A stretch of 64,000 bases of DNA from an uncultured Actinomycetes bacterium (GTDB taxonomy: Bacteria; Actinomycetota; Thermoleophilia; Gaiellales; JAICJC01): NCBI GenBank assembly GCA_963708725.1, contig CAVPTL010000008.1, forward strand, positions 733,697 through 797,696, given 5' to 3'. A program made the position numbers and the translations under genes. The notes under the pieces are model-generated. The model ran no database searches and had not been told where the DNA came from. It saw only the letters and a program-made list of their open reading frames with translations. Below are positions 4,448-62,938 of this stretch, one piece after another. How positions within the stretch are numbered: the stretch's first letter is position 1; each line of letters begins with the position of its first letter.

Positions 4448-4463
4448 TCCGATCGGAAACTGG

Positions 4464-4496
4464 GTGAATAAATGGTGCCTGGCACCATTTATTCAC
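4464..4496. repeat. Palindromic intergenic repeat copy 1 (33 nt, perfect, centre T); putative bidirectional terminator
   Basis: Sequence gtgaataaatggtgccTggcaccatttattcac, between the MFS stop (4447) and the ftsH start. Confidence 0.85.
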
Positions 4497-4522
4497 CCGG
4501 TGGTTTGCCCGTCACGGAGCCG

Positions 4523-6506: not shown

Positions 6507-7277
6507 ATGGCGCGCACAGCGATCCCCGGGTTGGTGGTCGCGACGGACACGGCGGTCCCCGGCGGCCTGATCCGCGGGCAGGTGTCGGGAGGGCCGGAGG
6601 AGCTGCGCTTGATCCGGTTCGAGGGATCCCCGGCGGGAACGGCTCCGGTGGTTCTGGCCCGGGCGGCTCCTGACGCGGATGGCGGGTTCGAGTTGACGCT
6701 GCCCGAGAACTCGGCGCCGACGTTCAAGAGCACTCGCTGCTCGATTGCCTACGGGGTACGAGCGGGCTCCAAGCGCCGCACGCGCACCGATCCGGTGGTG
6801 CCGGTGGTGGTGGTGTCACCGCTCGAGCACGTGTCTCTGACCGAAAGCGGCCCGCTCCACGACCGCATGATCGCGCGGTTTGACGCGCGCCACTTTCACC
6901 TCGAGCTGTCGCATGCCGACGTTCAGGGTGGTGGCCGCATCAGCGGGCGGGTGCATCTCGACCGCGGCGATCCGCCGCCCGTGGTCACCGTGACCTCGCG
7001 GTGCGAAGAGGTCTGGAGGATCGATCGGATGTCGCTCAACATGAAGCGGCCGCCACTCTGGAACTACGAGGGGCTGTGGCAGGAGCGGCGGGAACTCGAA
7101 TGGCCGCTTGGGCAGCGCTGGTTGGGATTCGACTTCGCGCTGCCCGCGCACCTCCCACCGGCCGTCGAAGCCAGCTCGATCGCTTGGCGCTATGAGGTGG
7201 AGGTGTCGCGACCGACTCGCTTCGCGATGCAGGAGCGCGCTGTCGCCACGCCAATCGGCTTTGAAGTCGTCCTGTGA
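6507..7277 (+). CDS. Hypothetical two-domain beta-rich protein, possibly arrestin/Spo0M-like
   Basis: In-frame ATG one nt after the ftsH stop (TGAgATG). Two similar halves are visible (G.I.G.V...LP...P..F/.Y.V patterns). The family assignment is pattern-based only. Confidence 0.5.
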   Translation: MARTAIPGLVVATDTAVPGGLIRGQVSGGPEELRLIRFEGSPAGTAPVVLARAAPDADGGFELTLPENSAPTFKSTRCSIAYGVRAGSKRRTRTDPVVPVVVVSPLEHVSLTESGPLHDRMIARFDARHFHLELSHADVQGGGRISGRVHLDRGDPPPVVTVTSRCEEVWRIDRMSLNMKRPPLWNYEGLWQERRELEWPLGQRWLGFDFALPAHLPPAVEASSIAWRYEVEVSRPTRFAMQERAVATPIGFEVVL

Positions 7278-7304
7278 ATAACGGTGCCTGGCACCGTTAT
7301 TCAC
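7274..7304. repeat. Palindromic intergenic repeat copy 2 (31 nt, perfect, centre T; dyad extends to 7271-7307)
   Basis: Sequence cctGTGAATAACGGTGCCTGGCACCGTTATTCACagg. The TGA at 7275-7277 ends the plus-strand gene and the TCA at 7301-7303 ends the minus-strand gene. Confidence 0.9.
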
Positions 7305-9172
7305 AGGTGGCGGTCGAACCAGTCGCGCATTCGCGCCACCGCGTCGATCTGATGGTCACGCTCGTCCCAGCCGTGGCCCTCGCGGGGATAGATCACGAGT
7401 TCGGTGTCCACGCCCTCCGCGGCCAGCGCGTTGTAGAACTCCTGGCCCTGCGCCAGCGGCACGCACAGGTCGAGCTCACCGTGCATCACCAGGGTGGGAG
7501 TCTTCACCCGGCGCACATGCACCACCGGTGAGCGGCCGAAGTACTCACCGTCGGCGGCATAGGGATCGGCTTGGAGAAACAGCTCATCGAAGCGCGCGAT
7601 GTTCGACGTGTTGTGGAACGAGAGCCAATCGGTGACCGCCGCGATCGCCACCGCCGCGCCGAACCGGTCGGTCTGGGTCACCGCCCACGCGGCCATGAAC
7701 CCGCCGTAGCTTCCACCCATGATGCCCACCCGAGCGCCGTCGACCAGTCCGCGTTCGGCAAGGGCGTCGACGCCGCTGAGGATGTCACCGAGGTCACGGC
7801 CGCCCATGTCACCCAGGTTTGCCTCGGTGAACTCGCGGCCGCGGCCGATGCTGCCGCGCGGGTTGGGCAGAAACAGTGCGTAGCCGGCGGCGGCTTGCCA
7901 CGAGCCGAAATGACGCGGGTGGGCGGATCCGTAGGCGGCGGTTGGGCCGCCGTGCACGAGCACGATCAGCGGTGGCGGCTCGGTAACCCCTTGCGGCGTG
8001 ATCAGAAAGCCTTCGAGTTCGAGTCCGTCGCTCGCCGTCCAGGTCACCGCTGCTCGCACCGGCAGCTCGATCGCAGAGGCTGCGTTCACACGCGAAAGTG
8101 CCGTCCACGCCGATCCTGGCTGGTCGAGAGTGAGGGAGCGAAGCTCGGGCGGATGCTCCCACGACGAATGCGTCGCGACCAGCGATCGGCCGTCGGGGGA
8201 GAGCACCGCCAGCGGGAAGTTGTGGCTACCGAGATCGGCCGCACCCTGCCACAGCAGCGACACCGAACCCGCGAGGTTCACGGTCGCAACGGCGAACTCG
8301 AGGTGATGCATGCCGGTGCACACCAGCGTCTCGGGATCAACCCACCGAACCTCCGCCGCGTCGAACCCGACGCTGATCGTTTGGATGTCGCCAGAGCCGG
8401 TGACCACGGTGATGTCGCCATACAGCACACCGCGATCCGACGCCAGGGATTCGACCATCGCGATCGCGCCGGATTCGGGCTCGAGGCTGATCGACGCCGC
8501 CTGTAGCCGAGGGGTGTGGACGGTTGTCGCCTCGTCGCCGACGATGCGCACCACCCGCGCGTCGTACCACCCGTTCTCCGAGGGATCGTGTGAGACCAGG
8601 GCGGCGATGTCGCTTCCGTGCCAGTCGAACTCCCAGATGTTGAGCCCCGCCAGGGGCAGCTGTGTGGTCGCGCCGGTCGTGACGTCGATCCTCCACAGGC
8701 GGCGCCAGTGGCTTGCCGGCCGCACGATCCGCGGATCCTCCTTGACCTCGCCAACGGGGGTTGCGGACTCGGCTCCGGCCTGGTCGGCACCCACATCGGC
8801 GGCGAGTGCCAGCATGGTGGTCCCGTCGCTCGACCAACGGAGGTCTTCGACAGACCCCGCCACATCTCCGACTCGGCGGATCGAGCCGTCGGGGTCGAGC
8901 AGGTGGATCGCGCCCACCTTGGCCTGCTCACGATCCGACACGAACGCCAGTGTGCGCCCATCGGGCGACCACACAGGCAGCCGGTCGCTGCGAGGCCCGT
9001 CAGACACCCGATCGGCCCCCGAGCCGTCGGCCGCGGCGACCCAGATGCGGGCGGATCGGCCGACCTCGGGCAGGGTGTATGCCTGTTCGACGGTGAACGC
9101 CACGCGCGTGCCGTCGGGCGAGACCGCGGGTTGGCAGGGGTGTTCGAGATCGAGTAACCGGTCGAAGCTCAT
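7301..9172 (-). CDS. S9 family serine peptidase (prolyl oligopeptidase / acylaminoacyl-peptidase-like, beta-propeller plus alpha/beta hydrolase)
   Basis: Start placed at MSFDRLLDLEHP (ATG 9172..9170), an ATGA overlap with the upstream MFS stop. PDG/WSPDG propeller repeats are present, with the nucleophile motif GGSYGG. The 139 codons upstream in the ORF track are Arg/Gly-rich and implausible. Confidence 0.85.
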   Translation of the reverse strand: MSFDRLLDLEHPCQPAVSPDGTRVAFTVEQAYTLPEVGRSARIWVAAADGSGADRVSDGPRSDRLPVWSPDGRTLAFVSDREQAKVGAIHLLDPDGSIRRVGDVAGSVEDLRWSSDGTTMLALAADVGADQAGAESATPVGEVKEDPRIVRPASHWRRLWRIDVTTGATTQLPLAGLNIWEFDWHGSDIAALVSHDPSENGWYDARVVRIVGDEATTVHTPRLQAASISLEPESGAIAMVESLASDRGVLYGDITVVTGSGDIQTISVGFDAAEVRWVDPETLVCTGMHHLEFAVATVNLAGSVSLLWQGAADLGSHNFPLAVLSPDGRSLVATHSSWEHPPELRSLTLDQPGSAWTALSRVNAASAIELPVRAAVTWTASDGLELEGFLITPQGVTEPPPLIVLVHGGPTAAYGSAHPRHFGSWQAAAGYALFLPNPRGSIGRGREFTEANLGDMGGRDLGDILSGVDALAERGLVDGARVGIMGGSYGGFMAAWAVTQTDRFGAAVAIAAVTDWLSFHNTSNIARFDELFLQADPYAADGEYFGRSPVVHVRRVKTPTLVMHGELDLCVPLAQGQEFYNALAAEGVDTELVIYPREGHGWDERDHQIDAVARMRDWFDRHL

Positions 9173-18413: not shown

Positions 18414-19580
18414 TGCGTCGCTCGGCTCTTGCCATTCTGGTACTCGTATTCGTGGAGGAGCTGACGTTGTTCGCGATCATCCCGATCGTGCCGTTGTACT
18501 CCTCTCAGCTCGGCCTCTCAAAGGTGCAGTCGGGTGCGGTGCTGTCGGCGGCGGCGTTCGCGGTCGTACTCAGCTCGATACCGGCGGGCATCCTTGCCGA
18601 TCGCGATTGGCGCGCGGCGCGTAACGATCGCCGCCGGTTGCCTGACGGTGGTCGCTTGCGTGCTCCAGGCGTATGCCGGTTCATTCGAGACGATCCTGAC
18701 CGCGCGGCTGTTGTTCGGGGTCAGCTCGGCGGTGGTGTGGTCGTCGGCGCTGTCGTGGCTGTCGGATGTGAGCACCGAGGACACCCGGGCGTCGGTGGTC
18801 GGTTTGACCGTGACGGCCGCGGGGGTGGGCAGCCTGGTCGGTCCGGCGTTCGCGGGTTACGTCGCCCAGCACTTCTCGATCGAGGCGGCGTTTCTGTCGA
18901 TCGCGGTCGCAACCGCGGTGATCACGGGGGCGCTGTTTTTTGTCGGCGAGGGTGTACCTCACGCCATCGAGACGACCTCGCTGCGTCAGGTTGCGGGGAT
19001 CGTGACCGGGAGCCCGCTGATCGTGGGGGCACTGCTGATGATGTTCGTCGCGGGTTTCGTGGACGGCATCGTCAATCTGCTGGCGCCTCTCGAGTTGGCG
19101 GCCGACGGTCTCTCGTCGGGTCCGGTCGGGCTGGTGTTCTCGATTGCCGCTGCGATCTTTATCGGTGTGAGTGGCGTCGTCTCGCGCGGCGGTTTGGCGG
19201 CGTCGCCGCGCGCGGCCGGGGCCGCGTGTCTGATCCAGGCGGTCACGATGGTGCCGGTGCTGTTCTCGCTCGCGACCGCGTCGGTGATCTTTGTGGTGCT
19301 CGCACGCGGGCCGACCACAGCCGTCGTGTACACGGTCGCGATGCCCGTCGCCGTCATGGCGTCACGGCGGCACGGCATCGGCACGGCCACGGTCGCCGGG
19401 GTGGTTGGGGCGACCTGGGGCTTTGCCAGTGCGATCGGGCCGCCGATCGCGGGACTGATCGCCGACTCGGCGAGCGACCAGGCCGCCTATGCACTGGGCG
19501 CCGTGATGCTCGTTGGCGCAGGTGTGTGGCTGCTGCGCGGGGCGGTGCAGCCGACTCCCGCACCGGAGCCCCTTGGGTGA
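18413..19580 (+). pseudogene. MFS transporter with a frame disruption near 18605
   Basis: TM1-2 (MRRSALAILVLVFVEELTLF...IPAGILADR) are in one frame. The remainder (IGARRVTIAAG... to PEPLG*) is in the +1 frame as ORF 18534..19580. Removing the g at about 18605 restores motif A, GILADRIGARR. Confidence 0.75.
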
Positions 19581-19607
19581 ATAACGGTGCCTGGCACCGT
19601 TATTCAC
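19577..19607. repeat. Palindromic intergenic repeat copy 3 (31 nt, perfect, centre T)
   Basis: Sequence gtgaataacggtgccTggcaccgttattcac. The TGA at 19578-19580 is the stop of the MFS gene. Confidence 0.9.
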
Positions 19608-19632
19608 TCGCCTCGGCTAGCGTTCGCCGGCC

Positions 19633-20904: not shown

Positions 20905-21510
20905 GTGGTCGATCAGGTCCACGCCATCCTGCGGGAGCAGATCCTCAACGGAGAGTTGCCGCGTGGCTCGCGGCTGCCTCAGGAGACGATCGCCGCGGAG
21001 CTCGGCGTGTCACGCACGCCGTTGCGCGAGGCCTTGCGGCGGCTGGCGAGTGAGGGGCTGGTGACGCTTCAACCCAATCACGGCGCGACCGTGGCCGGCC
21101 TCGACTTCTCCGACCTGCATGACGCCTGGGTGGCGCGGCTGGCGATCGAGCCCTCGGCCGCGCGGCTGGCGGCTGAGCGCCGCGACCCGGACGAGCTCGA
21201 GCGGATGGCGGCGGCGATCGCATCCCAGCGGCGGGTGGGCGACGCGGCCTCGGGCCTCGACGCCAACCGCGAGTTTCACCTGGCGCTGGTCGCGGCCTCC
21301 GGAAACCGGCACTTCGATCACTTCGCCCACATGCTGTGGGTATCGCGAATCTCGGTCGCGATCTACACCGCCCAGGCCAGCGAATCGGCCGGCGTCGACG
21401 GCTGGGCGGACGAGCACGAAGCGATCCTGGCCGCGATCACGGCAGCCGACGGCGACCGCGCCGAACACCTCACCCGCGCCCACATCGAGCGCCACCCACC
21501 CCTCCGGTGA
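20905..21510 (+). CDS. GntR-family regulator (FadR/FCD-type C-terminal domain)
   Basis: The wHTH reads LPQETIAAELGVSRTPLREALRRLASEGLV. The start is moved to the in-frame GTG 20905 because the ORF-track start at 20833 coincides with the predicted -35 hexamer. Confidence 0.82.
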   Translation: MVDQVHAILREQILNGELPRGSRLPQETIAAELGVSRTPLREALRRLASEGLVTLQPNHGATVAGLDFSDLHDAWVARLAIEPSAARLAAERRDPDELERMAAAIASQRRVGDAASGLDANREFHLALVAASGNRHFDHFAHMLWVSRISVAIYTAQASESAGVDGWADEHEAILAAITAADGDRAEHLTRAHIERHPPLR

Positions 21511-21537
21511 ATAACGGTGCCAGGCACCGTTATTCAC
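21507..21537. repeat. Palindromic intergenic repeat copy 4 (31 nt, perfect, centre A; dyad extends to 21504-21540)
   Basis: Sequence ccgGTGAATAACGGTGCCAGGCACCGTTATTCACcgg. The TGA at 21508-21510 is the gntR stop. Confidence 0.9.
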
Positions 21538-21550
21538 CGGCGCTACAGGT

Positions 21551-23089
21551 CTAGATGGCGGTGTCCGGCGGGGCCGGCGTGAAGTCGAGGTTCTCGTCCA
21601 GTGGAGCGACGCCGCGATGTTCGGCGGCGTGCTGGGCGGCGTTCTTCACGTTGTCCGGTCGTGCGACCTTGACCACGACGAACCACACCAGTGCAATCAC
21701 GACCACCGCCAGCGCCCAGTAGAACGCGAGCCAGTTGTAGTTGGTTGTGTCGTGCGGAGCCGGCTTGAGTGCTCCGTAGAAGCCTTGCAGCGGAGTCAGC
21801 ACAGCCACCAGCACGATCAGGTACTGCCACCATTTGCCGCCGTGACGGGCGAGCAGTACCAGGCCACCGATGGCGAGCAGCAGGTACACGATCTCGATCG
21901 CGAACGAGCCCGCCGTCGCCGAAACGATGAAGGTCGAGAACTCCTTCGACCCGAAGATCGGCACGAACTTGTCCATCGTGCTGGTCGTCGACATGATCAG
22001 CAGGAACACACTGCCGACCACGATCACCAGGTTGCCCACCCATGGAGTGTTGTGCCGCGAGGTCTTGGCGAACACCTTGGGCAGCAGGCCGTCGCGGCCC
22101 AGCGCGAAGTAGCCGCGGCCGAGAGCCACGCACACCGCCAGTCCGAGTGCGGTCGCGTCGAGAATCACGACCAGGTCGATCAGGGTGCCCAGCCACGATC
22201 CCACGTACTGCTTGGCCATCGTGTCGAGCGCGGCCGGGTCGAGTGCCCACGCGCCCTTCTCGATCGCCGCTTTGCCGTAGCCGATCGTCATCGCGTAGGC
22301 CATGATCACGAAGAACACCGAGGAGGCTGCGATCGCCCCGAGCACGGCGCGGGGAATCGACTTGTACGGGTCGCTCGACTCCTCGCCGATCGATGCGGCG
22401 GCCTCGAATCCGACGAACAGCAAAATGCCGAGCAGGATGCCGCCGAGCACCCCGCCGCCGGTGACGCCGAACAGCGATGTCTGGCCGGGGTTGAACACCT
22501 GGAGCGTGTTACCGTCGGCGCCGCCCTGCGCGATGATCGCCACCGCGAGGATCAGCATCGGGATGAACGAGATCGCCGCGAACGCGAGCATCGCCCCGAT
22601 GGCCAGCCGCACGCCGAGGTAGTTGAGGATGAGCACGATCACCATCATGATCCCGCCGAGTACCCACCAGGCGGGCGCGTTTGACGCGTCGCCGATGTGG
22701 TTGACCCAGAAGCCGTTGAGCAGTACGCCGAGGCCGACGTAGATACCGCCGCCGCCGAGAAACAACGTGCCGACGAAGAAGATCCCGGCCGCGATGATGC
22801 CGACATAGGGATGCGTACCGTGGGTCAGGTACTCATAGACGGCGCCTGCGCCCGCGTACCGACGAGCGTGCAGCGACAGCGCGTATCCGATCGCGAGCAC
22901 ACCGAGGCCCGCGAGCAGCACCGCCAGGGCGGCGTTGAACCCCGCGCCTGTGGCGGGATTGGAGACTGCTCCGAGAACCAATGCGACCGAGAACATCGGC
23001 CCGATTGCAAGTGCCTGTGCGATCGCGTGGATCGTCGTCAGGTTGCGTTCACCCAGCTGGCCGCTGGGGGCGGGTGCGTCACTGGCCAT
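21551..23089 (-). CDS. APC-superfamily amino acid permease
   Basis: 512 aa with about 12 TM segments and typical APC composition. A GAAGGAG RBS precedes the ATG. Confidence 0.82.
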   Translation of the reverse strand: MASDAPAPSGQLGERNLTTIHAIAQALAIGPMFSVALVLGAVSNPATGAGFNAALAVLLAGLGVLAIGYALSLHARRYAGAGAVYEYLTHGTHPYVGIIAAGIFFVGTLFLGGGGIYVGLGVLLNGFWVNHIGDASNAPAWWVLGGIMMVIVLILNYLGVRLAIGAMLAFAAISFIPMLILAVAIIAQGGADGNTLQVFNPGQTSLFGVTGGGVLGGILLGILLFVGFEAAASIGEESSDPYKSIPRAVLGAIAASSVFFVIMAYAMTIGYGKAAIEKGAWALDPAALDTMAKQYVGSWLGTLIDLVVILDATALGLAVCVALGRGYFALGRDGLLPKVFAKTSRHNTPWVGNLVIVVGSVFLLIMSTTSTMDKFVPIFGSKEFSTFIVSATAGSFAIEIVYLLLAIGGLVLLARHGGKWWQYLIVLVAVLTPLQGFYGALKPAPHDTTNYNWLAFYWALAVVVIALVWFVVVKVARPDNVKNAAQHAAEHRGVAPLDENLDFTPAPPDTAI

Positions 23090-23151
23090 GTCGCCACTCC
23101 TTCGTACGGACGAAATGAGTACGCGCCGATCGGCGCGAGAGAAGAGTGGAT

Positions 23152-36275: not shown

Positions 36276-36289
36276 GCGCCGGTCGCATT

Positions 36290-36321
36290 TGAATAAATGG
36301 TGCCAGGCACCATTTATTCAC
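36290..36321. repeat. Palindromic intergenic repeat copy 5 (16-nt arms, centre A, first base degenerate)
   Basis: Sequence tgaataaatggtgccAggcaccatttattcac, between convergent gene ends (36203 and 36351). Confidence 0.85.
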
Positions 36322-36350
36322 GTGACAGAGCTGACACGGAGTTGTGACAG

Positions 36351-56434: not shown

Positions 56435-56497
56435 AAAGATTTAAACGCGGTCGAGGGCGAGATTACTCCCATGTCGCAAAGTGCGGGAATTTCGTGG

Positions 56498-56526
56498 TTG
56501 CACGGGCTGGGCGGCTGCCCTACTGT
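56498..56526 (+). promoter_or_regulatory. Candidate promoter TTGCAC-N17-TACTGT in front of structured RNA copy 1
   Basis: TTGCAC lies at 56498-56503 and TACTGT at 56521-56526. Copy 2 has TTGCAG-N17-TAACTT at the homologous position, although the spacer sequence differs. Confidence 0.5.
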
Positions 56527-56533
56527 CACTTCT

Positions 56534-56641
56534 GCGCCGCCCAAGGTAACCAAGTAGGACGAAACCGGGCGGAGGGATTGTAGAGGCGACTCGAACGTTC
56601 CTTCGGCCGGCGGACGAAAGGTCAACCAGGGCGGCGAATCC
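56534..56641 (+). ncRNA. Unclassified conserved structured RNA, copy 1 (strand not settled)
   Basis: Closing helix 56535-56542 pairs with 56629-56636. A second helix pairs 56545-56547 with 56625-56627. A hairpin spans 56600-56621 with the invariant loop GCCGGCGGA. Identity with 61451-61558 is about 80 percent, with two compensatory pair changes. Confidence 0.5.
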
Positions 56642-56649
56642 TGTTAAAC

Positions 56650-56680
56650 GTGAATACCAGTGCCAGGCACCGTTATTCAC
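56650..56680. repeat. Palindromic intergenic repeat copy 6 (31 nt, 2 arm mismatches, centre A)
   Basis: Sequence gtgaataccagtgccAggcaccgttattcac, 9 nt after structured RNA copy 1. Confidence 0.8.
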
Positions 56681-56725: not shown

Positions 56726-56887
56726 ATGGACACCTCAGACATGCTGATCGTCGTGCTCGCCGTTGTGTCGGCTCTGGTCTGCGTGATGTGCTGCGCCGCG
56801 CGATTCGGATTGAGCAGTCAGGCAATCATCGCCGAGCGCGAGCAGCTCGACACGGATCACCGCGACTCCGAGGACATCGCCGCTTAG
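56726..56887 (+). CDS. Possible 53-aa single-TM peptide
   Basis: An in-frame ATG about 11 nt after GGGAGAAG gives MDTSDMLIVVLAVVSALVCVMCCAARFG.... Its TAG overlaps the TAA of the convergent cgl-like gene (TTAG). There is no homology support. Confidence 0.3.
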   Translation: MDTSDMLIVVLAVVSALVCVMCCAARFGLSSQAIIAEREQLDTDHRDSEDIAA

Positions 56888-58014
56888 CTCAGCGCTTGAT
56901 CGAGGTCGGCGATCAGGTCGCCGGCGGACTCGATTCCGACCGACAATCGCACCAATGTGCGCGGGGTCGCAAACGGCGCGTCCGCCGTCGAAGCATGAGT
57001 CATCTGTGCGGGATGCTCGATCAGGCTCTCGACTCCTCCGAGGCTCTCGGCCAGAGACCACACCGTGGTGCGAGCGACGAGCGCGACGGCTTCGTCTTCG
57101 GATGAACTCAGAAACGAGATCATCCCTCCGAAGCCGTCCATCTGGCGTGCGGCGATCTCGTGGCCGGGATGACCGCTCAGCCCGGGGTAGAGCACCCGCT
57201 CGACTCTGGGATGGCCGCTGAGGAACTCGACCACGGCAGCCGCGTTGTCGCAGTGTGCGCGCATCCGCACCGCCAGCGTCTTCAACCCCCGCAGCACGAG
57301 CCAGGCGTCGAACGGCCCGGGGATCGCGCCCAGCGAGTTTTGAAGAAACCGCAGCTGTTCGGCCAGGCCGTCGTCGCTGGTCGCGGCGAACCCGCCGACC
57401 AGGTCGGAGTGCCCGCCGAGGTACTTCGTGGTCGAGTGCAGCACGATGTCGGCACCAAGCTCGACCGGCCGCTGGAGGTACGGCGAGGCGAAGGTGTTGT
57501 CGACCACCAGCAGGGCGCCGGCGGCATGCGCGGCCTCCGCCGCTGCGCGGATATCGACGACGTTCAGGAGCGGGTTGGTGGGAGTCTCGATCCACACCAG
57601 CCGCGTGTCGGCGTCCAAATGGGCTGCGAGATCGGTGTTGCAGGTCTCGGCGTCGAGAAACTCGAACCGCACACCGCGCGGCTCGTACACCTTTGAGAAC
57701 AGCCGGTAGGTGCCGCCGTACACGTCGTTGACAGCCACCACCCGATCGCCGGGGCTCACGAGGTGCATGACGGTCGTCGCCGCGGCCATGCCGGAGGCAA
57801 AGGCCACTCCGTGGGTGCTCGACTCGAGGTCTGCCAGGCACTCCTCGAGCGCGCGCCGAGTCGGGTTCGCGGTGCGCGAGTAGTCGTAGCCGCCCTTGAG
57901 CTGACCGACAGCCTCCTGCACGTAGGTCGAGGTCTGGTAGATCGGGACGGTCACCGCGCCGGTCGACGGATCGGGTTCCTGGCCCGCGTGGATCGCACGT
58001 GTCTCGAAATCCAT
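56884..58014 (-). CDS. Cystathionine gamma-lyase/gamma-synthase family PLP enzyme
   Basis: Start placed at MDFETRAIHAGQ (ATG 58014). The PLP-lysine block is HSTTKYLGGHSD. The ORF-track upstream extension is Arg-rich. Confidence 0.88.
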   Translation of the reverse strand: MDFETRAIHAGQEPDPSTGAVTVPIYQTSTYVQEAVGQLKGGYDYSRTANPTRRALEECLADLESSTHGVAFASGMAAATTVMHLVSPGDRVVAVNDVYGGTYRLFSKVYEPRGVRFEFLDAETCNTDLAAHLDADTRLVWIETPTNPLLNVVDIRAAAEAAHAAGALLVVDNTFASPYLQRPVELGADIVLHSTTKYLGGHSDLVGGFAATSDDGLAEQLRFLQNSLGAIPGPFDAWLVLRGLKTLAVRMRAHCDNAAAVVEFLSGHPRVERVLYPGLSGHPGHEIAARQMDGFGGMISFLSSSEDEAVALVARTTVWSLAESLGGVESLIEHPAQMTHASTADAPFATPRTLVRLSVGIESAGDLIADLDQALS

Positions 58015-58034
58015 GCGGGCCAGTCTACCGGGGG

Positions 58035-59144
58035 TCAGGCGACGGCCAGACCGAGCGTGCGAGCGAGCCGGTCGAGCGCTCGCTCCAGCGGCTGGGAGCT
58101 TCGGAAGCCGCGTTCCGGGTGATAGGCGACGACGCGCAGGTGACCGGCCTTGCGGTCGGCCTTCAGGTCGGCGCGGCCAACGATGCGATCGCCCGACACC
58201 AACGGAAGCACGTAGTAGCCGTACTGCCGCTGCGGAGCGGGCTTGTAGACCTCGATCAGGTGGTCGAACCCGACCACTCGGCGGGCGAACGGGCGATCCC
58301 AAAGCAGGTTGTCGAACGGTGAGATCAGGACGGTGGCGGTGGGGCTCGCATCGAAGCTCGTCCCGGCCGGAACCAGCACGGGGGCCCCGCCGTCGTCGAC
58401 GTCGTGGCGATCCAGCAGACCCTCGCGCACGAGCGCGTCGGAGTGTGGCTGGAGTCGCGCGACGCCGCCCTTCAGCCGCGCGTGCTCGCACACCCCCCGC
58501 TCGGTCAGTGCTCCGCGGGTGGTCACCGCCCACAGTGTCACCGCGCGCAGAAACTCGGTCTCGGTGGGAATCGGCGCCTCCAGATACGCAGCCGGGATCA
58601 CGCGTTCGCTGAGGTCGTACAACCGCTGGAATCCCTGGCGCCCGGCGATCGCCAGATCACCCGAGCTCCACAGCGCCTCGAGCATGATCTTTGCCGGCTT
58701 CCGATTCCACATCCCGCCGGATCCCTTGCCCTCGAAATGACGCGAGCCCAGCGCACCGCGCTCGCGAATCTCACCGAGCACCTGGTCGGCCAGCCGCGGA
58801 TCCTTGGCGATCACCGCCCCGTGCCACGGGTGGATTCGAAACTCGTCCATTCGGCGCTTCCACATCGGCCAGTTGTCGGTCGTCATCAGGCAGGCCTCGT
58901 GCGCCCAGTACTCGAACACCCGACCCTCACCGAGCAGCTTTGAGATCGTGCCCTTGGGGTAGACACCGATGCGGGCACCGAGCGTGAGCCGGTGGCTTCG
59001 GTCCACCGTCGAGATGGAGTCGAGCTGCACCGCGCCCAGCCGGCGAATCGTGGCCTCGACATCGTCGGCGTTCGAGTTCAGACGCCGACCCGCATACCCC
59101 TGCGCCGCGATCACGTGGCGGCGGAGGGCGTTCACCGAGATCAT
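58035..59144 (-). CDS. Winged-helix YcaQ/AlkZ-family protein (DUF1006; interstrand-crosslink DNA glycosylase family)
   Basis: 369 aa with blocks RRLGAVQLDSISTVDRSHRLTLGARIG and FEYWAHEACL. The ATG overlaps the cbs stop (ATGA). Confidence 0.7.
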   Translation of the reverse strand: MISVNALRRHVIAAQGYAGRRLNSNADDVEATIRRLGAVQLDSISTVDRSHRLTLGARIGVYPKGTISKLLGEGRVFEYWAHEACLMTTDNWPMWKRRMDEFRIHPWHGAVIAKDPRLADQVLGEIRERGALGSRHFEGKGSGGMWNRKPAKIMLEALWSSGDLAIAGRQGFQRLYDLSERVIPAAYLEAPIPTETEFLRAVTLWAVTTRGALTERGVCEHARLKGGVARLQPHSDALVREGLLDRHDVDDGGAPVLVPAGTSFDASPTATVLISPFDNLLWDRPFARRVVGFDHLIEVYKPAPQRQYGYYVLPLVSGDRIVGRADLKADRKAGHLRVVAYHPERGFRSSQPLERALDRLARTLGLAVA

Positions 59145-60544
59145 CGAGCGCCGGGCTCCCGTTGGGCGGCCAGATACTCGAGCAGGTCAGAGCGGGTCAG
59201 CACGCCCGCGGGCCGTCCCCCGTCGGCCACGACGACCGCGGGGCTGCCGCCGGTGAGGTCGGCGAACACGCGGTCGATCGATTCGCCGGCGTCGACAACG
59301 TGCAGCGGCGGCTGCATCGCCTCGGCCACCTCATGCTCGAGCGCGGTGGGGTCTTTGAACACGCGGTCGAGCAGTCCGCGCTCGTGCAGCGAGCCCACCA
59401 CGTCGTCGAGCTCCGCGGGGTCTCGACGCACCACCGGGAGCTGCGAGATCGAGTAGCGCTGCATCAGCGCGATCGCGTCGCCCACCCGACGGTGGGTTTC
59501 GATTACCACCAGCTCGGGGACGCCGGTTTGGCTGCTTCGGTGGTACTGCAGCACCTCCCCCACCGTCGGCGTGGCGGTGCTGCCCCGTTCGAGCAGGCCA
59601 TGTTCCAGCATGTAGTTGTCGTCGTAGAACTTGCTCAGGTATGCACGGCCGCTGTCGGGGATGAGCGTGACCACGGTGGCGTCGGGGCCAAGGCCGCGTG
59701 CCGTCTCGACGGCCGCGAACACCGCGGTGCCGCCCGATCCGCCAACCAGCAGCCCCTCTTCTCGGGCCATCCTTCTGGCCATCACGAACGAGTCGCGGTC
59801 AGAGACGGTGATGAAGCGGTCGATCAGTGAGAGATTCATGGTCGCCGGGTAGAAGTCCTCGCCAATGCCCTCGACCAGATAGGGGTGGACATCGTCGGGC
59901 TGCGAGTAGATCGAGCCCTCGGGGTCTGCGCCGACGACCACCAGGTCGGGCTTTTGCTCCTTCAGGTAGCGCGAGATGCCCGACACGGTGCCACCCGTCC
60001 CCAGCGCGATCACCAGGGCGTCGATCTCGCCGCCAGTCTGCTCCCAGATCTCGGGGCCGGTGGTGTCGTAGTGGGCCTGCGGATTGGCCATGTTGGCGTA
60101 TTGATTGGGCTTGAAACCGCCCGGGATCTCCTCGGCGAGCCGGTCAGACACCGAGTAGTAACTCTCGGGTGACTCAGGCTCGACCGCGGTCGGGCAGATC
60201 ACGACCTCGGCACCGTAGGCCCGCAGCAGCGAGATCTTCTCGCGGCTCATCTTGTCGGGCATCACGAAGATGCAGCGATACCCCTTGATCGCAGCGGCGA
60301 TGGCCAGGCCGACGCCGGTGTTGCCCGAGGTGGGCTCGACGATCGTGCCACCCGGCTTGAGGCTGCCGTCGCGCTCGGCGGCCTCGATCATCCTGATCCC
60401 GATCCGATCCTTGACCGAGCCGCCGGGGTTGAGGTACTCGAGCTTGGCGACGACCGTCGCCGGCACGTCTCGGGTGACCGCTTGCAGCCGCACCAGCGGG
60501 GTGCCCCCGATCAGCTCGACGACGGTGGGGTACGTGCGGGTCAC
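59141..60544 (-). CDS. cbs: Cystathionine beta-synthase (PLP domain plus C-terminal CBS pair)
   Basis: GTG 60544 overlaps the upstream stop (GTGA). The PLP lysine block is NPGGSVKDRIG. The C-terminus has tandem CBS-like segments. Confidence 0.85.
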   Translation of the reverse strand: MTRTYPTVVELIGGTPLVRLQAVTRDVPATVVAKLEYLNPGGSVKDRIGIRMIEAAERDGSLKPGGTIVEPTSGNTGVGLAIAAAIKGYRCIFVMPDKMSREKISLLRAYGAEVVICPTAVEPESPESYYSVSDRLAEEIPGGFKPNQYANMANPQAHYDTTGPEIWEQTGGEIDALVIALGTGGTVSGISRYLKEQKPDLVVVGADPEGSIYSQPDDVHPYLVEGIGEDFYPATMNLSLIDRFITVSDRDSFVMARRMAREEGLLVGGSGGTAVFAAVETARGLGPDATVVTLIPDSGRAYLSKFYDDNYMLEHGLLERGSTATPTVGEVLQYHRSSQTGVPELVVIETHRRVGDAIALMQRYSISQLPVVRRDPAELDDVVGSLHERGLLDRVFKDPTALEHEVAEAMQPPLHVVDAGESIDRVFADLTGGSPAVVVADGGRPAGVLTRSDLLEYLAAQREPGAR

Positions 60545-61368
60545 TCCGGCCAGACGTGGGAGTGGAAGAAGCCTTTCCAGGCCGACCACCAGTCATCGCC
60601 ACGCGAGATCAGAAGGCGCGAGTCGCGGATCTCGACGTCGGGCCGGTAGCGGTACTGCTCGGCATGGTCGGAGCTGGCAAGCTCGACCGCGATTTCGCAG
60701 GGGTGCCCAGGGTCGTACGGCGCGACCGCGGTGAGGTCGGCGAGTGCCTTGCGGGCGCCATCCTCGACCATTGTGCGCGCGACGGTGGGGGACTTGTGGC
60801 GAGCGCTGTACCGACCCAGGCTCTGCTTGACCGCCACGGTCGAGAGGCCCTGGCCGAGCAGCTCGGTCGATTCGCGGCATACGGCTTCGTCACCGGTGAC
60901 CAGCAGCACCGGGCAGCCCCACGTGCCGCAGAGCGCGGCGTTGATACCGACCTCGCCAACCTCCACCCCGTTGAAGCTGACCGAGCGCCAATGGGTGCTC
61001 GAAACTGTGTGGTTGAGGCCGCCGTCGGGAGTCCCGGCGCGGGCGTGCTGGCCGATGAAGAGCGCGGCATCGCACCCCTGTTCGAGAAACTCGGTGTAGT
61101 CGGTCCACTCACGCTGAACGACGAACTCGCAGCGGGGATCGAGCTCGTCGGGAATCAGGGAGTTGAACGTCCAGCCGTTACCGGCGCCGTGGCAGTCCAT
61201 CACCACGACCTCGGTGGCCCCGGCGGAGAAGCTTCCGCGCACCGCGGCGTTGATCTCCTCGGTGTAGAGCTTGCGGGCCTCGAAGTACTGCGGCGTACCA
61301 CCGTCGACCTGATCCCAGGTGGTGATTCCGGCCACGCCTTCCATGTCACTGATGATGAAGACCCGCAT
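60541..61368 (-). CDS. Peptidase M55 (DppA-type D-aminopeptidase) family
   Basis: MRVFIISDMEGVAGI... is the typical M55 N-terminus. 275 aa. Confidence 0.8.
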   Translation of the reverse strand: MRVFIISDMEGVAGITTWDQVDGGTPQYFEARKLYTEEINAAVRGSFSAGATEVVVMDCHGAGNGWTFNSLIPDELDPRCEFVVQREWTDYTEFLEQGCDAALFIGQHARAGTPDGGLNHTVSSTHWRSVSFNGVEVGEVGINAALCGTWGCPVLLVTGDEAVCRESTELLGQGLSTVAVKQSLGRYSARHKSPTVARTMVEDGARKALADLTAVAPYDPGHPCEIAVELASSDHAEQYRYRPDVEIRDSRLLISRGDDWWSAWKGFFHSHVWPE

Positions 61369-61414
61369 GCGCCGCGCACTCTATCGAAGTCCGCAAACTG
61401 CGCGAAATTCGTGG

Positions 61415-61443
61415 TTGCAGACCGGGCCTACATCCCTTAACTT
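61415..61443 (+). promoter_or_regulatory. Candidate promoter TTGCAG-N17-TAACTT in front of structured RNA copy 2
   Basis: TTGCAG lies at 61415-61420 and TAACTT at 61438-61443, homologous in position to 56498-56526. Confidence 0.5.
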
Positions 61444-61450
61444 GACTCCT

Positions 61451-61558
61451 GCGCCGCTGAGGGCAGCCAAGTAGGTTGAAACCGGGCGGAGGGATCGTAG
61501 GGGCGACTCGAAAATCCTTTCGGCCGGCGGACGAAAGGCAAGCCGGAGCGGCGAATCC
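61451..61558 (+). ncRNA. Unclassified conserved structured RNA, copy 2 (strand not settled)
   Basis: Closing helix 61452-61458 pairs with 61547-61553. A second helix pairs 61462-61464 with 61542-61544. A hairpin spans 61516-61538 with the loop GCCGGCGGA. Confidence 0.5.
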
Positions 61559-61565
61559 TTTTAAT

Positions 61566-61746
61566 ACGGGGGGCGCTTGGGTGGGGTTCTGTTGCGGCTG
61601 GTTCGCGCCGGCTGTGGCTGCGTCCCACGCGACGTGCGGTGCTCAACGTGGCCGCTGGCCACGCCTGCGCTCCGCTCGCCGCTCGATCCTTGCCACAACC
61701 ACCGCGCCCTGCGCCTCACGACGAACCCCACCCAAGCGCCCCCCGT
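61566..61746. repeat. B-type hairpin element B2: 181 nt bounded by a perfect 24-bp inverted repeat
   Basis: acggggggcgcttgggtggggttc (61566-61589) pairs with gaaccccacccaagcgccccccgt (61723-61746). An internal hairpin gtggcc-gct-ggccac is present. The core at 61669-61697 is shared with 36225-36253. Confidence 0.75.
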
Positions 61747-61749
61747 GTG

Positions 61750-61782
61750 GTGAATAAATGGTGCCAGGCACCTTTTATTCAT
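61750..61782. repeat. Palindromic intergenic repeat copy 7 (33 nt, 2 arm mismatches, centre A)
   Basis: Sequence gtgaataaatggtgccAggcaccttttattcat. Confidence 0.8.
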
Positions 61783-61793
61783 GGGGCGCTTTT

Positions 61794-61822
61794 GTGACGG
61801 AATCGTTGCATTCACCTATACT
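61794..61822 (+). promoter_or_regulatory. Candidate promoter GTGACG-N17-TATACT, 9 nt before ATG 61832 (leaderless or near-leaderless)
   Basis: Hexamers at 61794-61799 and 61817-61822. Confidence 0.45.
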
Positions 61823-61831
61823 CGGCTCGCG

Positions 61832-62938
61832 ATGAAGATGCGAGCTGCGGTGTTGGAGGAGTTTGGGGCGCCGTTGGTGGTGCAGGAGATCGATCTTGCC
61901 GATCCCGCCCCCGGCGAGGTGCTCGTGCGTTTGGTCGCCTGCGGCGTCTGCCACACAGATCTCTACACCGCCTCTGGAGCCGATCCGTCGGGGTACGCCC
62001 CCACTGTGCTGGGCCACGAGGGTGCGGGCGTGGTCGAGGCGGTCGGCGAGGGAGTCTCGCTGGTTGCGGTTGGCGATCATGTGGTCACCCTGTTTTCGCC
62101 CCAGTGCGGCAAGTGCATCCACTGCCTGAGCCCCAAGACCAACCTGTGCCTGGCGATCCGCGAGCAGCAGAACCTGGGGTACCTGCCCAACGGCACCGCT
62201 CGGCTGTCACGCGACGGCGAGCCGATCCGGCACTTCATGGGCACCTCGACATTTGCGGAGTACACCGTGATGCCCGAGATCGCTCTGGCCAAGATCTCGC
62301 CAGAGGCACCGCTCGAGGGGGCTTGCCTGTTTGCCTGCGGGCTCTCGACCGGACTGGGCGCGGCAATCAACACCGCCAAGGTCGAGCCGGGATCGACGTG
62401 CGTGGTGTTCGGCGCCGGCATGGTCGGGCTCGGCGCCGTCGCGGGCTGCCGGTTACAGGGCGCCGAGCGGATCGTGTGCGTGGACATGTCGCAGGAGCGG
62501 CTTGAACTGGCCCGTGGCCAGGGGGCGACCGAGTTGATGATCGGCGGCGACGACGCCGTCGAGCGGATCGTCGAGATGACCGGCGGCTTCGGGGCGGACT
62601 ACACCTTCGAGGCCACCGGCAACGTGCGCGTCATGCGCCAGGCGGTCGAGTCGGCGCGGATGGGCTGGGGCCTCGCCACCGTCGCCGGCGTCGCGGGCCG
62701 GGGAGAGGTGCTTGAGGTGATCCCCCGTTTTCTGATCACCGGTCGGCGAATCGCCGGCTCGTCGTTCGGCGGGGTCAAGGGGCGAGAAGGCGTGCCGAAG
62801 CTGATTCAGCGCTGGCTGGACGGCGAGATCGACGTCGACCCGTTCCTCTCGCACAGGATCACGCTCGACGAGGTCAATCGCGGATTTGAGCTGATGGAAG
62901 CCCAGGACGGCATCCGCAGCGTCATCGAGTTCGGCTAG
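61832..62938 (+). CDS. Zinc-dependent alcohol dehydrogenase, class III-like (thiol-dependent formaldehyde dehydrogenase family)
   Basis: Start placed at MKMRAAVLEEFG. Motifs CGVCHTD, GHEGAGVVEAVG, structural-zinc Cys cluster CGKCIHCLSPKTNLC, and GAGMVGLG. Confidence 0.85.
   Translation: MKMRAAVLEEFGAPLVVQEIDLADPAPGEVLVRLVACGVCHTDLYTASGADPSGYAPTVLGHEGAGVVEAVGEGVSLVAVGDHVVTLFSPQCGKCIHCLSPKTNLCLAIREQQNLGYLPNGTARLSRDGEPIRHFMGTSTFAEYTVMPEIALAKISPEAPLEGACLFACGLSTGLGAAINTAKVEPGSTCVVFGAGMVGLGAVAGCRLQGAERIVCVDMSQERLELARGQGATELMIGGDDAVERIVEMTGGFGADYTFEATGNVRVMRQAVESARMGWGLATVAGVAGRGEVLEVIPRFLITGRRIAGSSFGGVKGREGVPKLIQRWLDGEIDVDPFLSHRITLDEVNRGFELMEAQDGIRSVIEFG

Follow-up and report, generated by a model that had tools for sequence, protein, structure and literature searches.

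A conserved two-copy cassette in the window

The 64,000-nt stretch of an uncultured Gaiellales bacterium analyzed here (contig CAVPTL010000008.1; hereafter, the window) contains two copies of an intergenic cassette, at positions 56473-56649 (copy a) and 61390-61566 (copy b). The copies bracket an operon-like run of minus-strand genes (56884-61368) encoding, in order, an M55 (DppA-like) peptidase, a cystathionine beta-synthase, an AlkZ-like DNA glycosylase and a cystathionine gamma-synthase/lyase-type enzyme; copy a reads toward the 3′ end of this run, copy b diverges from its 5′ end, and both sit in divergent intergenic regions. Each cassette consists of a DNA dyad (CGCAAAnnGCG), a sigma-70-type promoter (TTGCAN, a 17-nt spacer and TAnnnT) and a 121-nt block that contains the predicted RNA. 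Pairwise alignment of the copies gave a mean column identity of 80% over 284 aligned columns, a span that includes unrelated flanks; the RNA part was free of gaps, and 20 of the 121 block positions differed. Block positions are numbered below in a common frame, in which position i corresponds to window position 56526+i in copy a and 61443+i in copy b.

The original prediction, made from the letters of the window alone, had described a conserved intergenic cassette in two copies that share a nearly identical 45-nt core and encode a structured RNA of about 105 nt. The alignment and a covariance model bear out the near-identity of the core and exactly two copies: the model matched copy a at 56527-56647 (142.6 bits) and copy b at 61444-61564 (143.2 bits), and no third copy was detected in the window with the filters on or off. 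Only part of the 56473-56649 interval is RNA, in that its 5′ third comprises the dyad and promoter and the RNA is predicted to begin at about 56534 (61451 in copy b). From the sequence, we place the plus-strand RNA of copy a at 56534-56644 (~111 nt, frame positions 8-118) and that of copy b at 61451-61561 (~111 nt), both on the basis of covariance-model match, fold and pair counts.

As originally proposed, the RNA matched no known family. A search of the whole window with Rfam 15 (4227 models) at gathering thresholds returned no matches, and at E ≤ 10 the two cassette regions yielded only mir-BART1 on a neighboring palindrome and a snoRNA in the flank, neither of them relevant. ARAGORN found no tRNA or tmRNA genes in the window, and a literature search found neither a description of this RNA motif nor a paper on small RNAs from this group of uncultured soil Actinomycetota/Gaiellales. 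The cassette RNA is a new structured RNA family, missing from Rfam, of a kind already known, namely the structured small RNAs of bacteria.

Distribution and sequence conservation

When 185,579 species genomes were searched for exact matches to the 17-mer GAAACCGGGCGGAGGGA, 92 loci were obtained (loci from all sources are given here by L numbers). BLASTN and the covariance model identified 14 true homologous copies in 11 of them, all in metagenome-assembled genomes (MAGs) labeled uncultured Actinomycetes, Gaiellales or Acidimicrobiales. Twelve more copies came from JGI metagenomes, which were scanned with a degenerate pattern. Orthologs of the dehydrogenase encoded downstream of copy b (86-90% identical and often named Gaiellales by NCBI) led to further copies in L118 and in L111/L112, the latter clearly more divergent; exact-pattern scans overlook divergent members such as L111. 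Homologs thus came from soil MAGs and metagenome contigs, some labeled Gaiellales, and the window itself matches ENA soil assemblies. Genomes with the RNA hold one to three copies. Many close orthologs of the dehydrogenase lack it (L110, L113-117, L119-125), and at these loci only ~30-55 nt separate the divergent gene from the dehydrogenase gene.

In total, 30 copies (22 distinct sequences) were aligned over 121 columns with zero insertions or deletions. The RNA (frame 8-118) had a mean pairwise identity of 0.89, compared with 0.42 in the promoter spacer of 17 nt and 0.31 over the 40 nt immediately downstream; the flanks have diverged to about the level of unrelated GC-rich DNA while the block has held, and no conservation was found among the copies 3′ of frame position 121. 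A coding peptide was ruled out. Variable columns are spread evenly over the three codon phases (14/14/12), which marks the block as non-coding, and the only open reading frame (ORF) through copy b begins at a TTG, in place of which copy a has ACG. As judged from these alignments, it is firmly shown that the RNA is a real family under strong purifying selection.

Two copies from metagenome Ga0307372 (L098:846-966 and L103:207-327) are identical in the RNA and nearly identical in promoter and dyad, yet lie in different gene contexts, upstream of the dehydrogenase in L098 and of a response-regulator gene in L103. Their identity suggests that the entire cassette was recently duplicated or copied by gene conversion.

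Secondary structure and strand of the RNA

The plus strand folds into an irregular rod. From the ends inward, it consists of P1 (frame 9-16/103-110; copy a, 56535-42/56629-36; copy b, 61452-58/61547-53), P2a (19-21/99-101; 56545-47/56625-27; 61462-64/61542-44), P2b (23-25/94-96; 56549-51/56620-22; 61466-68/61537-39), a tentative P2c (34-35/89-90), P3a (39-42/81-84; 56565-68/56607-10; 61482-85/61524-27), the 9-bp P3b (44-52/71-79; 56570-78/56597-605; 61487-95/61514-22) and P3c (57-59/64-66; 56583-85/56590-92; 61500-02/61507-09), which is capped by a GCGA tetraloop (60-63; 56586-89; 61503-06). In copy a, a U-rich tail occupies plus-strand positions 56637-56647. The coordinates originally given for P1 and P2a were correct in both copies, as were the two compensatory differences noted there: copy a has C-G and copy b has U-A as the seventh pair of P1, and P2a changes from GGT/ACC in copy a to GGC/GCC in copy b. 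Two further differences had been missed, a compensatory change in P2b (ACC/GGT in copy a vs. GCC/GGC in copy b) and G-C/G-U exchanges in the 9-bp helix. A proposed hairpin (CCUUUCG/CGAAAGG, frame 73-79/89-95) with the loop GCCGGCGGA was rejected in favor of P3b. Only copy b forms it perfectly; pair 75-93 fails in nine of 14 distinct sequences, and across the family the hairpin is 88.8% paired with no covariation. Its 5′ arm pairs instead with CGGAGGGAU to form P3b.

The 28 copies beyond the window add covariation to this fold, so that the claim of an RNA maintained by compensatory changes holds, at a length of ~111 nt. Across the 22 distinct sequences, standard pairs account for 99.4% of 698 pair cells, and nine pairs show double compensatory changes. 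None of 500 shuffled controls reached the observed value on any of five measures, and sliding the 3′ partners by 1-3 columns reduced pairing to 27-48%. RNAalifold independently recovered P1, P2a, P2b, P3a, P3b and P3c, but not the tentative P2c. Compensatory changes recurred in several separate copy groups: pair 15-104 switches between C-G and U-A in several of them, 14-105 is U-A in L086b and L105, 16-103 is G-C in L028 and L086b, 21-99 and 23-96 are altered in copy a and L069, 44-79 and 49-74 are altered in L111, 58-65 is A-U, G-U or G-C, and 34-90 covaries. Within P3b, all cells of the nine pairs but one are paired, and two double compensatory changes occur. The apical loop is always GNRA (GCGA, GUGA or GAGA).

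The helices are interrupted by loops whose sequences are also held. The central internal loop is A/G-rich, with 13 nt opposite 9 nt, and carries GGACGAAA on both strands (frame 31-38 and 86-93). A second internal loop, YGUA/GAAM (frame 53-56/67-70), is invariant and adjoins the GNRA-capped helix, whereas a CCUUC stretch is buried in P3b. P1 is followed by an invariant AAUC and then by a pyrimidine/U-rich run. Variable columns number 14 of 38 at unpaired positions and 26 of 64 at paired positions. The YGUA/GAAM loop presumably resembles a bulged-G (sarcin-ricin/loop E) module, in that an invariant 5′-GUA-3′ lies opposite 5′-GAA-3′ beside a GNRA-capped helix (frame 53-70), an arrangement that we take to be that of the sarcin-ricin loop. 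In 23S rRNA, this loop consists of AGUA/GAA and a GAGA loop. The likeness is limited to a local motif, for the cassette RNA has a 3-bp helix between module and loop where the sarcin-ricin loop has 1 bp, and a pyrimidine rather than an A at the first position.

Both window copies lie in divergent intergenic regions, beside genes for an ABC exporter and for the M55 peptidase/cystathionine operon, and the functional product might in principle be on the opposite strand, as the 5′ untranslated region of one of these transcription units. Alternatively, the cassette might act as DNA only or be a mobile element; the identical RNA and promoter in the two contexts of L098 and L103 indicate that it duplicates or undergoes gene conversion. 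Several results run against these readings. The plus-strand fold had an energy of -53.1 kcal/mol (z = -3.95) in copy a and -49.9 kcal/mol (z = -2.29) in copy b, whereas the minus strand folded no better than shuffled sequence (z = -0.71 and +0.28, respectively). G-U or U-G pairs make up 89 of the 698 pair cells, and pair 46-77 is G-U in 22 of 22 sequences; since these cells would be C-A mismatches on the other strand, they fix the plus strand. The covariance model scored 143 bits on the plus strand vs. 15 bits on the minus strand. In L029 and L073, the upstream gene is co-oriented with the RNA and ends just before the dyad, so that the cassette has no divergent gene there to act on. An element acting as DNA only would not be expected to show compensatory changes or to keep a GNRA loop, and a mobile element is contradicted by the lack of terminal repeats and of any match in plasmid, phage and viral collections. 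We therefore consider these explanations hardly credible; by all sequence-based criteria, it is firmly shown that the RNA lies on the plus strand.

Promoter and upstream dyad

Upstream of copy a, a -35 element (TTGCAC, 56498-56503) is separated by 17 nt from a -10 element (TACTGT, 56521-56526), and copy b has the same arrangement (TTGCAG, 61415-61420; 17 nt; TAACTT, 61438-61443), both on the plus strand. Among 27 distinct upstream sequences, the -35 element was TTGCA, TTGAC or a near variant, the -10 element was TAnnnT, and the spacer was 17 nt in almost all. The end of the -10 element directly abuts frame position 1 in every copy. Because the hexamers and the spacer length are constant while the spacer sequence varies, we regard the sigma-70-type promoter as real, and these comparisons firmly support an RNA with its own promoter at a fixed distance. 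Conservation places the predicted start at the invariant G8 (56534 and 61451), the base preceding P1; a sigma-70/SigA-type polymerase would thus initiate at this G, ~7 nt past the -10 element.

The dyad was found upstream of nearly all copies. In copy a (CGCAAAGTGCG, 56475-56485) and copy b (CGCAAACTGCG, 61392-61402), it lies ~50-60 bp upstream of the predicted start and is presumed to be the site of a DNA-binding regulator, which would probably control the promoter. In L069 and L095, the inner bases of the dyad appear in reverse-complement orientation relative to the other copies, evidence for a regulator site in the DNA rather than for part of an RNA. The window contains four matches to the dyad, namely the two RNA-linked sites and two others at chance level, and its use as a regulon marker in the window was therefore ruled out.

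The 3′ end and gene contexts

P1 and the AAUCCUUUU tail that follows it are conserved across copies. Immediately beyond, a strong hairpin is found 0-15 nt after the RNA in most loci, with a lineage-specific sequence. Directly 3′ of copy a, and outside the conserved RNA, this is a palindrome (GTGAATACCAGTGCCAGGCACCGTTATTCAC, 56650-56680) that may serve as the terminator hairpin of the transcript. The palindrome follows the RNA in the window, L013, L027, L056, L057 and L089, but not in L029, L073, L069 or L111. Its role as a riboswitch expression platform was ruled out, given that it is dispersed (seven copies in 64 kb) and missing in several lineages. The next start codon lies 4 to ~270 nt from the RNA, and the gap is taken up by unrelated inserts, among them the dispersed palindrome, a 181-bp element bounded by inverted repeats of 24 nt, and a terminator of 19 bp.

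The commonest co-oriented neighbor is a gene for a class III alcohol dehydrogenase, whose best NCBIfam match is class III alcohol dehydrogenase/S-(hydroxymethyl)glutathione dehydrogenase, below the curated cut-off. It lies downstream at variable distance in the copy-b type loci, i.e., in the window, L027, L056, L057, L042, L086, L098 and L111/L112. In the window, we place its true start at 61832 (MKMRAAVLEE...) in place of the listed 61781, which is ~17 codons too long. A promoter-like motif, TATACT-N9-ATG, spans plus-strand positions 61817-61834, and a promoter scan flagged the TATACT ending at 61822. The TAnACT-N9-ATG motif occurs upstream of orthologs with and without the RNA (including L110-L125), and in L111 the RNA and the dehydrogenase -10 element have a perfect hairpin of 19 bp between them. 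The arrangement implies a leaderless or near-leaderless mRNA, and the response-regulator gene downstream of the RNA in L103 (and probably in L089 too) has the same geometry, with its own TACCAT-N9-ATG. In L104, L118 and L096, the ATG falls 4-7 nt past the conserved block, the following hairpin is absent and the dehydrogenase's own -10 motif is missing; judging from this spacing, the RNA must be the 5′ leader of the downstream gene at these three loci.

The remaining contexts differ. In the window, L013, L027 and L056 (copy-a type), the palindrome is followed by a Shine-Dalgarno sequence and a conserved 53-aa ORF with a hydrophobic N-terminus (56726-56887, plus strand, in the window), which has no recognizable promoter of its own. 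A similar ORF is found at L094:1487-1642; these products of 51-53 aa have a hydrophobic N-terminal helix and a charged tail (MDTSDMLIVVLAVVSALVCVMCCAARFG...), and none matched Pfam or NCBIfam. In the window, the small ORF ends head-on against the cystathionine gamma-synthase/lyase-type gene. In L029, L073, L093, L097 and L100, two GC-rich hairpins are followed by the end of a convergent amino-acid permease gene ~60 nt away, and the upstream gene, co-oriented with the RNA, is NifU-like and is itself preceded by a GGDEF-EAL gene. The 3′ end of the RNA is overlapped in L069 and L094 by a convergent gene for a Na+/H+ exchanger, and the partial contig L095, whose downstream sequence matches these two loci, probably has the same arrangement. 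The cystathionine beta-synthase and gamma-lyase-type genes, named by NCBIfam, are divergent or convergent neighbors and are never downstream on the RNA strand; sensing of S-adenosylmethionine, S-adenosylhomocysteine or sulfur amino acids, which the original prediction had put forward for ligand probing, finds no support in this arrangement.

These contexts bear on the possibility that the RNA is a cis-acting leader, either a riboswitch or an attenuator that depends on a protein. Binding of the ligand or protein would stabilize the rod so that P1 and the U-rich tail terminate transcription; otherwise, polymerase would read through into a co-oriented gene (the dehydrogenase, the small membrane ORF or the response regulator) or transcribe a convergent transporter gene in antisense. 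In the copy-b type loci as well as in L104 and L118, the RNA immediately precedes a dehydrogenase gene of the same orientation. The loci in which the ATG follows within 4-7 nt without a separate -10 element fit such a leader, and so does the promoterless small ORF after copy a, which has a Shine-Dalgarno sequence. Nucleotides that are unpaired yet invariant are a usual feature of binding pockets, and copy b can form an alternative 7-bp hairpin (the rejected 73-79/89-95 helix). However, that helix is broken in most members and is the only alternative available, and with nothing conserved past position 121 a conserved expression platform is lacking. The start-codon distance is not maintained, and the downstream genes have a -10 motif of their own that is common to orthologs lacking the RNA. 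Furthermore, L029, L073, L093, L097, L100, L069 and L094 have no co-oriented gene at all, only convergent ones, and no Rfam riboswitch model matches. A cis-acting leader is the main rival to the reading favored below, though less probable than it. In a specific form of this rival, the rod would serve as aptamer in a riboswitch or attenuator of a new class; it would sense a metabolite related to aldehydes or thiols, or a protein carrying such a metabolite, and gate read-through from its own regulated promoter into the class III alcohol/formaldehyde dehydrogenase gene, other stress genes and, in some genomes, antisense transporter transcripts. This form appears unlikely.

A candidate independent small RNA

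We favor, with a probability of about one half, an independently transcribed, regulator-controlled small RNA that would function as a folded particle, probably through protein binding. This reading is preferred because the promoter geometry is fixed and hairpins or convergent genes come directly after the RNA, and because the downstream genes have separate promoters, no expression platform is conserved and the whole molecule is. That the RNA is a stand-alone unit is supported by the hairpins and convergent permease gene of the L029 group and the convergent exchanger gene of L069/L094, and likewise by the dehydrogenase orthologs (86-90% identical) that often lack the RNA and by the presence of the dehydrogenase promoter motif without it. 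In this scheme, the ~111-nt transcript would comprise the closing stem (P1/P2a/P2b), the A/G-rich central loop, P3a/P3b and, beyond P3b, the YGUA/GAAM internal loop and the 3-bp helix with its GNRA cap, and it would end with P1 and the AAUCCUUUU tail or else extend to the hairpin found after it in most loci. Variation is about as frequent in loops as in stems, and no copy has an insertion or deletion; we therefore infer a folded particle that sequesters or scaffolds a protein, rather than one that works through a short antisense seed. The RNA may ancestrally have been parked just upstream of the class III alcohol/formaldehyde-type dehydrogenase gene, with one lineage borrowing the RNA promoter. 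Since that promoter would then serve the dehydrogenase, a shared response to aldehyde or thiol stress is weakly suggested, i.e., the RNA may be induced under the same conditions as the enzyme.

Several observations weigh against an independent small RNA. Both transcript ends are predicted from sequence, the 5′ end from the position of the -10 element and the 3′ end from P1 and its tail. P1 closes a 94-nt interior and so, with its tail, is not a canonical intrinsic terminator, and the invariant AAUC stands between P1 and the U-run. Loci of five of about seven sequence/context groups have the RNA co-oriented upstream of the dehydrogenase, and in the fused arrangement of L104, L118 and L096 it is a 5′ leader. 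The small ORF after copy a, having no recognizable promoter, is probably co-transcribed with the RNA. Finally, no candidate partner protein was identified.

The promoter of the RNA and the hairpins at its end would also suit a classical base-pairing small RNA that acts in trans on mRNAs through a short exposed seed, for example in the pyrimidine-rich tail or in the GGACGAAA loops. Complementarity to Shine-Dalgarno sequences is found in the tail AAUCCUUUU and in the CCUUC stretch, although the latter is buried in P3b. A 9-nt sequence, UUUCGUCCG, in the 5′ untranslated region of a minus-strand permease gene (21551-23089), within 23050-23129 and just upstream of its Shine-Dalgarno sequence, is a perfect complement of CGGACGAAA in the RNA (frame 85-93), a match near chance level. 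Base-pairing small RNAs usually conserve only the seed and terminator, whereas here the whole molecule is conserved, stems included, without insertions or deletions. In addition, a duplex scan of four exposed segments against the 43 translation-initiation regions of the window showed no enrichment among neighbors, and the best matches were in the chance range. We regard a seed-based mechanism as quite improbable.

Several known RNAs resemble the cassette RNA in part. Like the small signal recognition particle (SRP) RNA (4.5S; Rfam Bacteria_small_SRP), it is a single irregular hairpin of ~110 nt with paired ends and very high conservation, and has a GNRA apical tetraloop beside invariant internal loops, which bind protein in SRP RNA. 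However, it has no Rfam SRP match at E ≤ 10 and lacks the loop sequences of domain IV, and its presence in one to three copies per genome and absence from close relatives mean that it is not a housekeeping RNA. With 6S RNA and Ms1, it shares a closing stem, a central internal loop, a terminal stem and a promoter of its own, as well as a candidate protein-sequestering role; it differs in length (~111 nt vs. ~180 nt for 6S and ~300 nt for Ms1), in having no Rfam 6S match and in its central loop, which probably contains pairs (34-90 covaries) and is not the open bubble of 6S RNA. Rod-like riboswitches (e.g., NAD+-I nadA, xanthine NMT1 and Li+ nhaA-I) similarly have helices split by internal loops with invariant nucleotides, and the cassette RNA is, like them, sometimes directly upstream of a coding region; in contrast to them, it matches no model, lacks a conserved expression platform, has an inconsistent gene context and has a promoter at a fixed distance from P1. 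Y RNA, which has a Ro-binding stem and is encoded beside an rsr (Ro/TROVE) gene, was likewise not matched in Rfam, and no TROVE protein was annotated among the neighbors in ~20 loci, rsr not having been searched for genome-wide. An orphan structured RNA of Actinobacteria, the raiA motif, is often but not consistently found upstream of particular genes (Weinberg et al., 2017; PMC5737381), and the ambiguity between action in cis and in trans is the same (PMC5737381). Its sequence and fold are unrelated to those of the cassette RNA: it is ~200 nt, has multiple stems and is in Rfam, where no match was obtained here.

Other elements in the window

The palindrome that follows copy a belongs to a dispersed family of 31-33 bp perfect palindromes, GTGAATAA(nn)GGTGCCAGGCACC(nn)TTATTCAC. 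Seven copies occur in the 64 kb, all intergenic and two of them between convergent genes, with approximate spans of 4457-4503, 7266-7312, 19569-19615, 21499-21545, 36282-36328, 56650-56680 and 61750-61781. The inner bases vary on both arms together, so that the palindrome is kept, and copies are also present in related MAGs, in tandem in L089. From its sequence and distribution, it looks like a repetitive extragenic palindromic (REP)-like element or a shared terminator. A 181-bp insert (61566-61746) with perfect 24-nt inverted repeats, ACGGGGGGCGCTTGGGTGGGGTTC and GAACCCCACCCAAGCGCCCCCCGT, separates RNA copy b from the palindrome at 61750-61781. A similar insert is found in L027 and none in the closest relatives, L056 and L057, where the palindrome directly follows the RNA. 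Its terminal repeats make it look like a miniature inverted-repeat transposable element or a long-hairpin insertion. Lastly, the presence of a DNA-repair glycosylase gene within the transsulfuration cluster is unusual; this arrangement is kept in relatives.

Implications

With its narrow host range, the RNA is of moderate interest as it stands. Zero insertions or deletions, and loops that are as constrained as stems amid diverged non-coding DNA, indicate a function that uses the whole folded molecule. Were the RNA a ligand sensor, it would represent a new riboswitch class and, if tied to the dehydrogenase as outlined above, the first RNA sensor linked to formaldehyde/thiol-adduct detoxification, from an abundant group of uncultured soil Actinomycetota. 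If it instead binds a protein, as we favor, it would be part of a new small ribonucleoprotein. The conserved promoter and dyad would provide a direct handle on what induces the RNA, and its recurrent adjacency to the dehydrogenase gene offers a physiological hypothesis for these bacteria.

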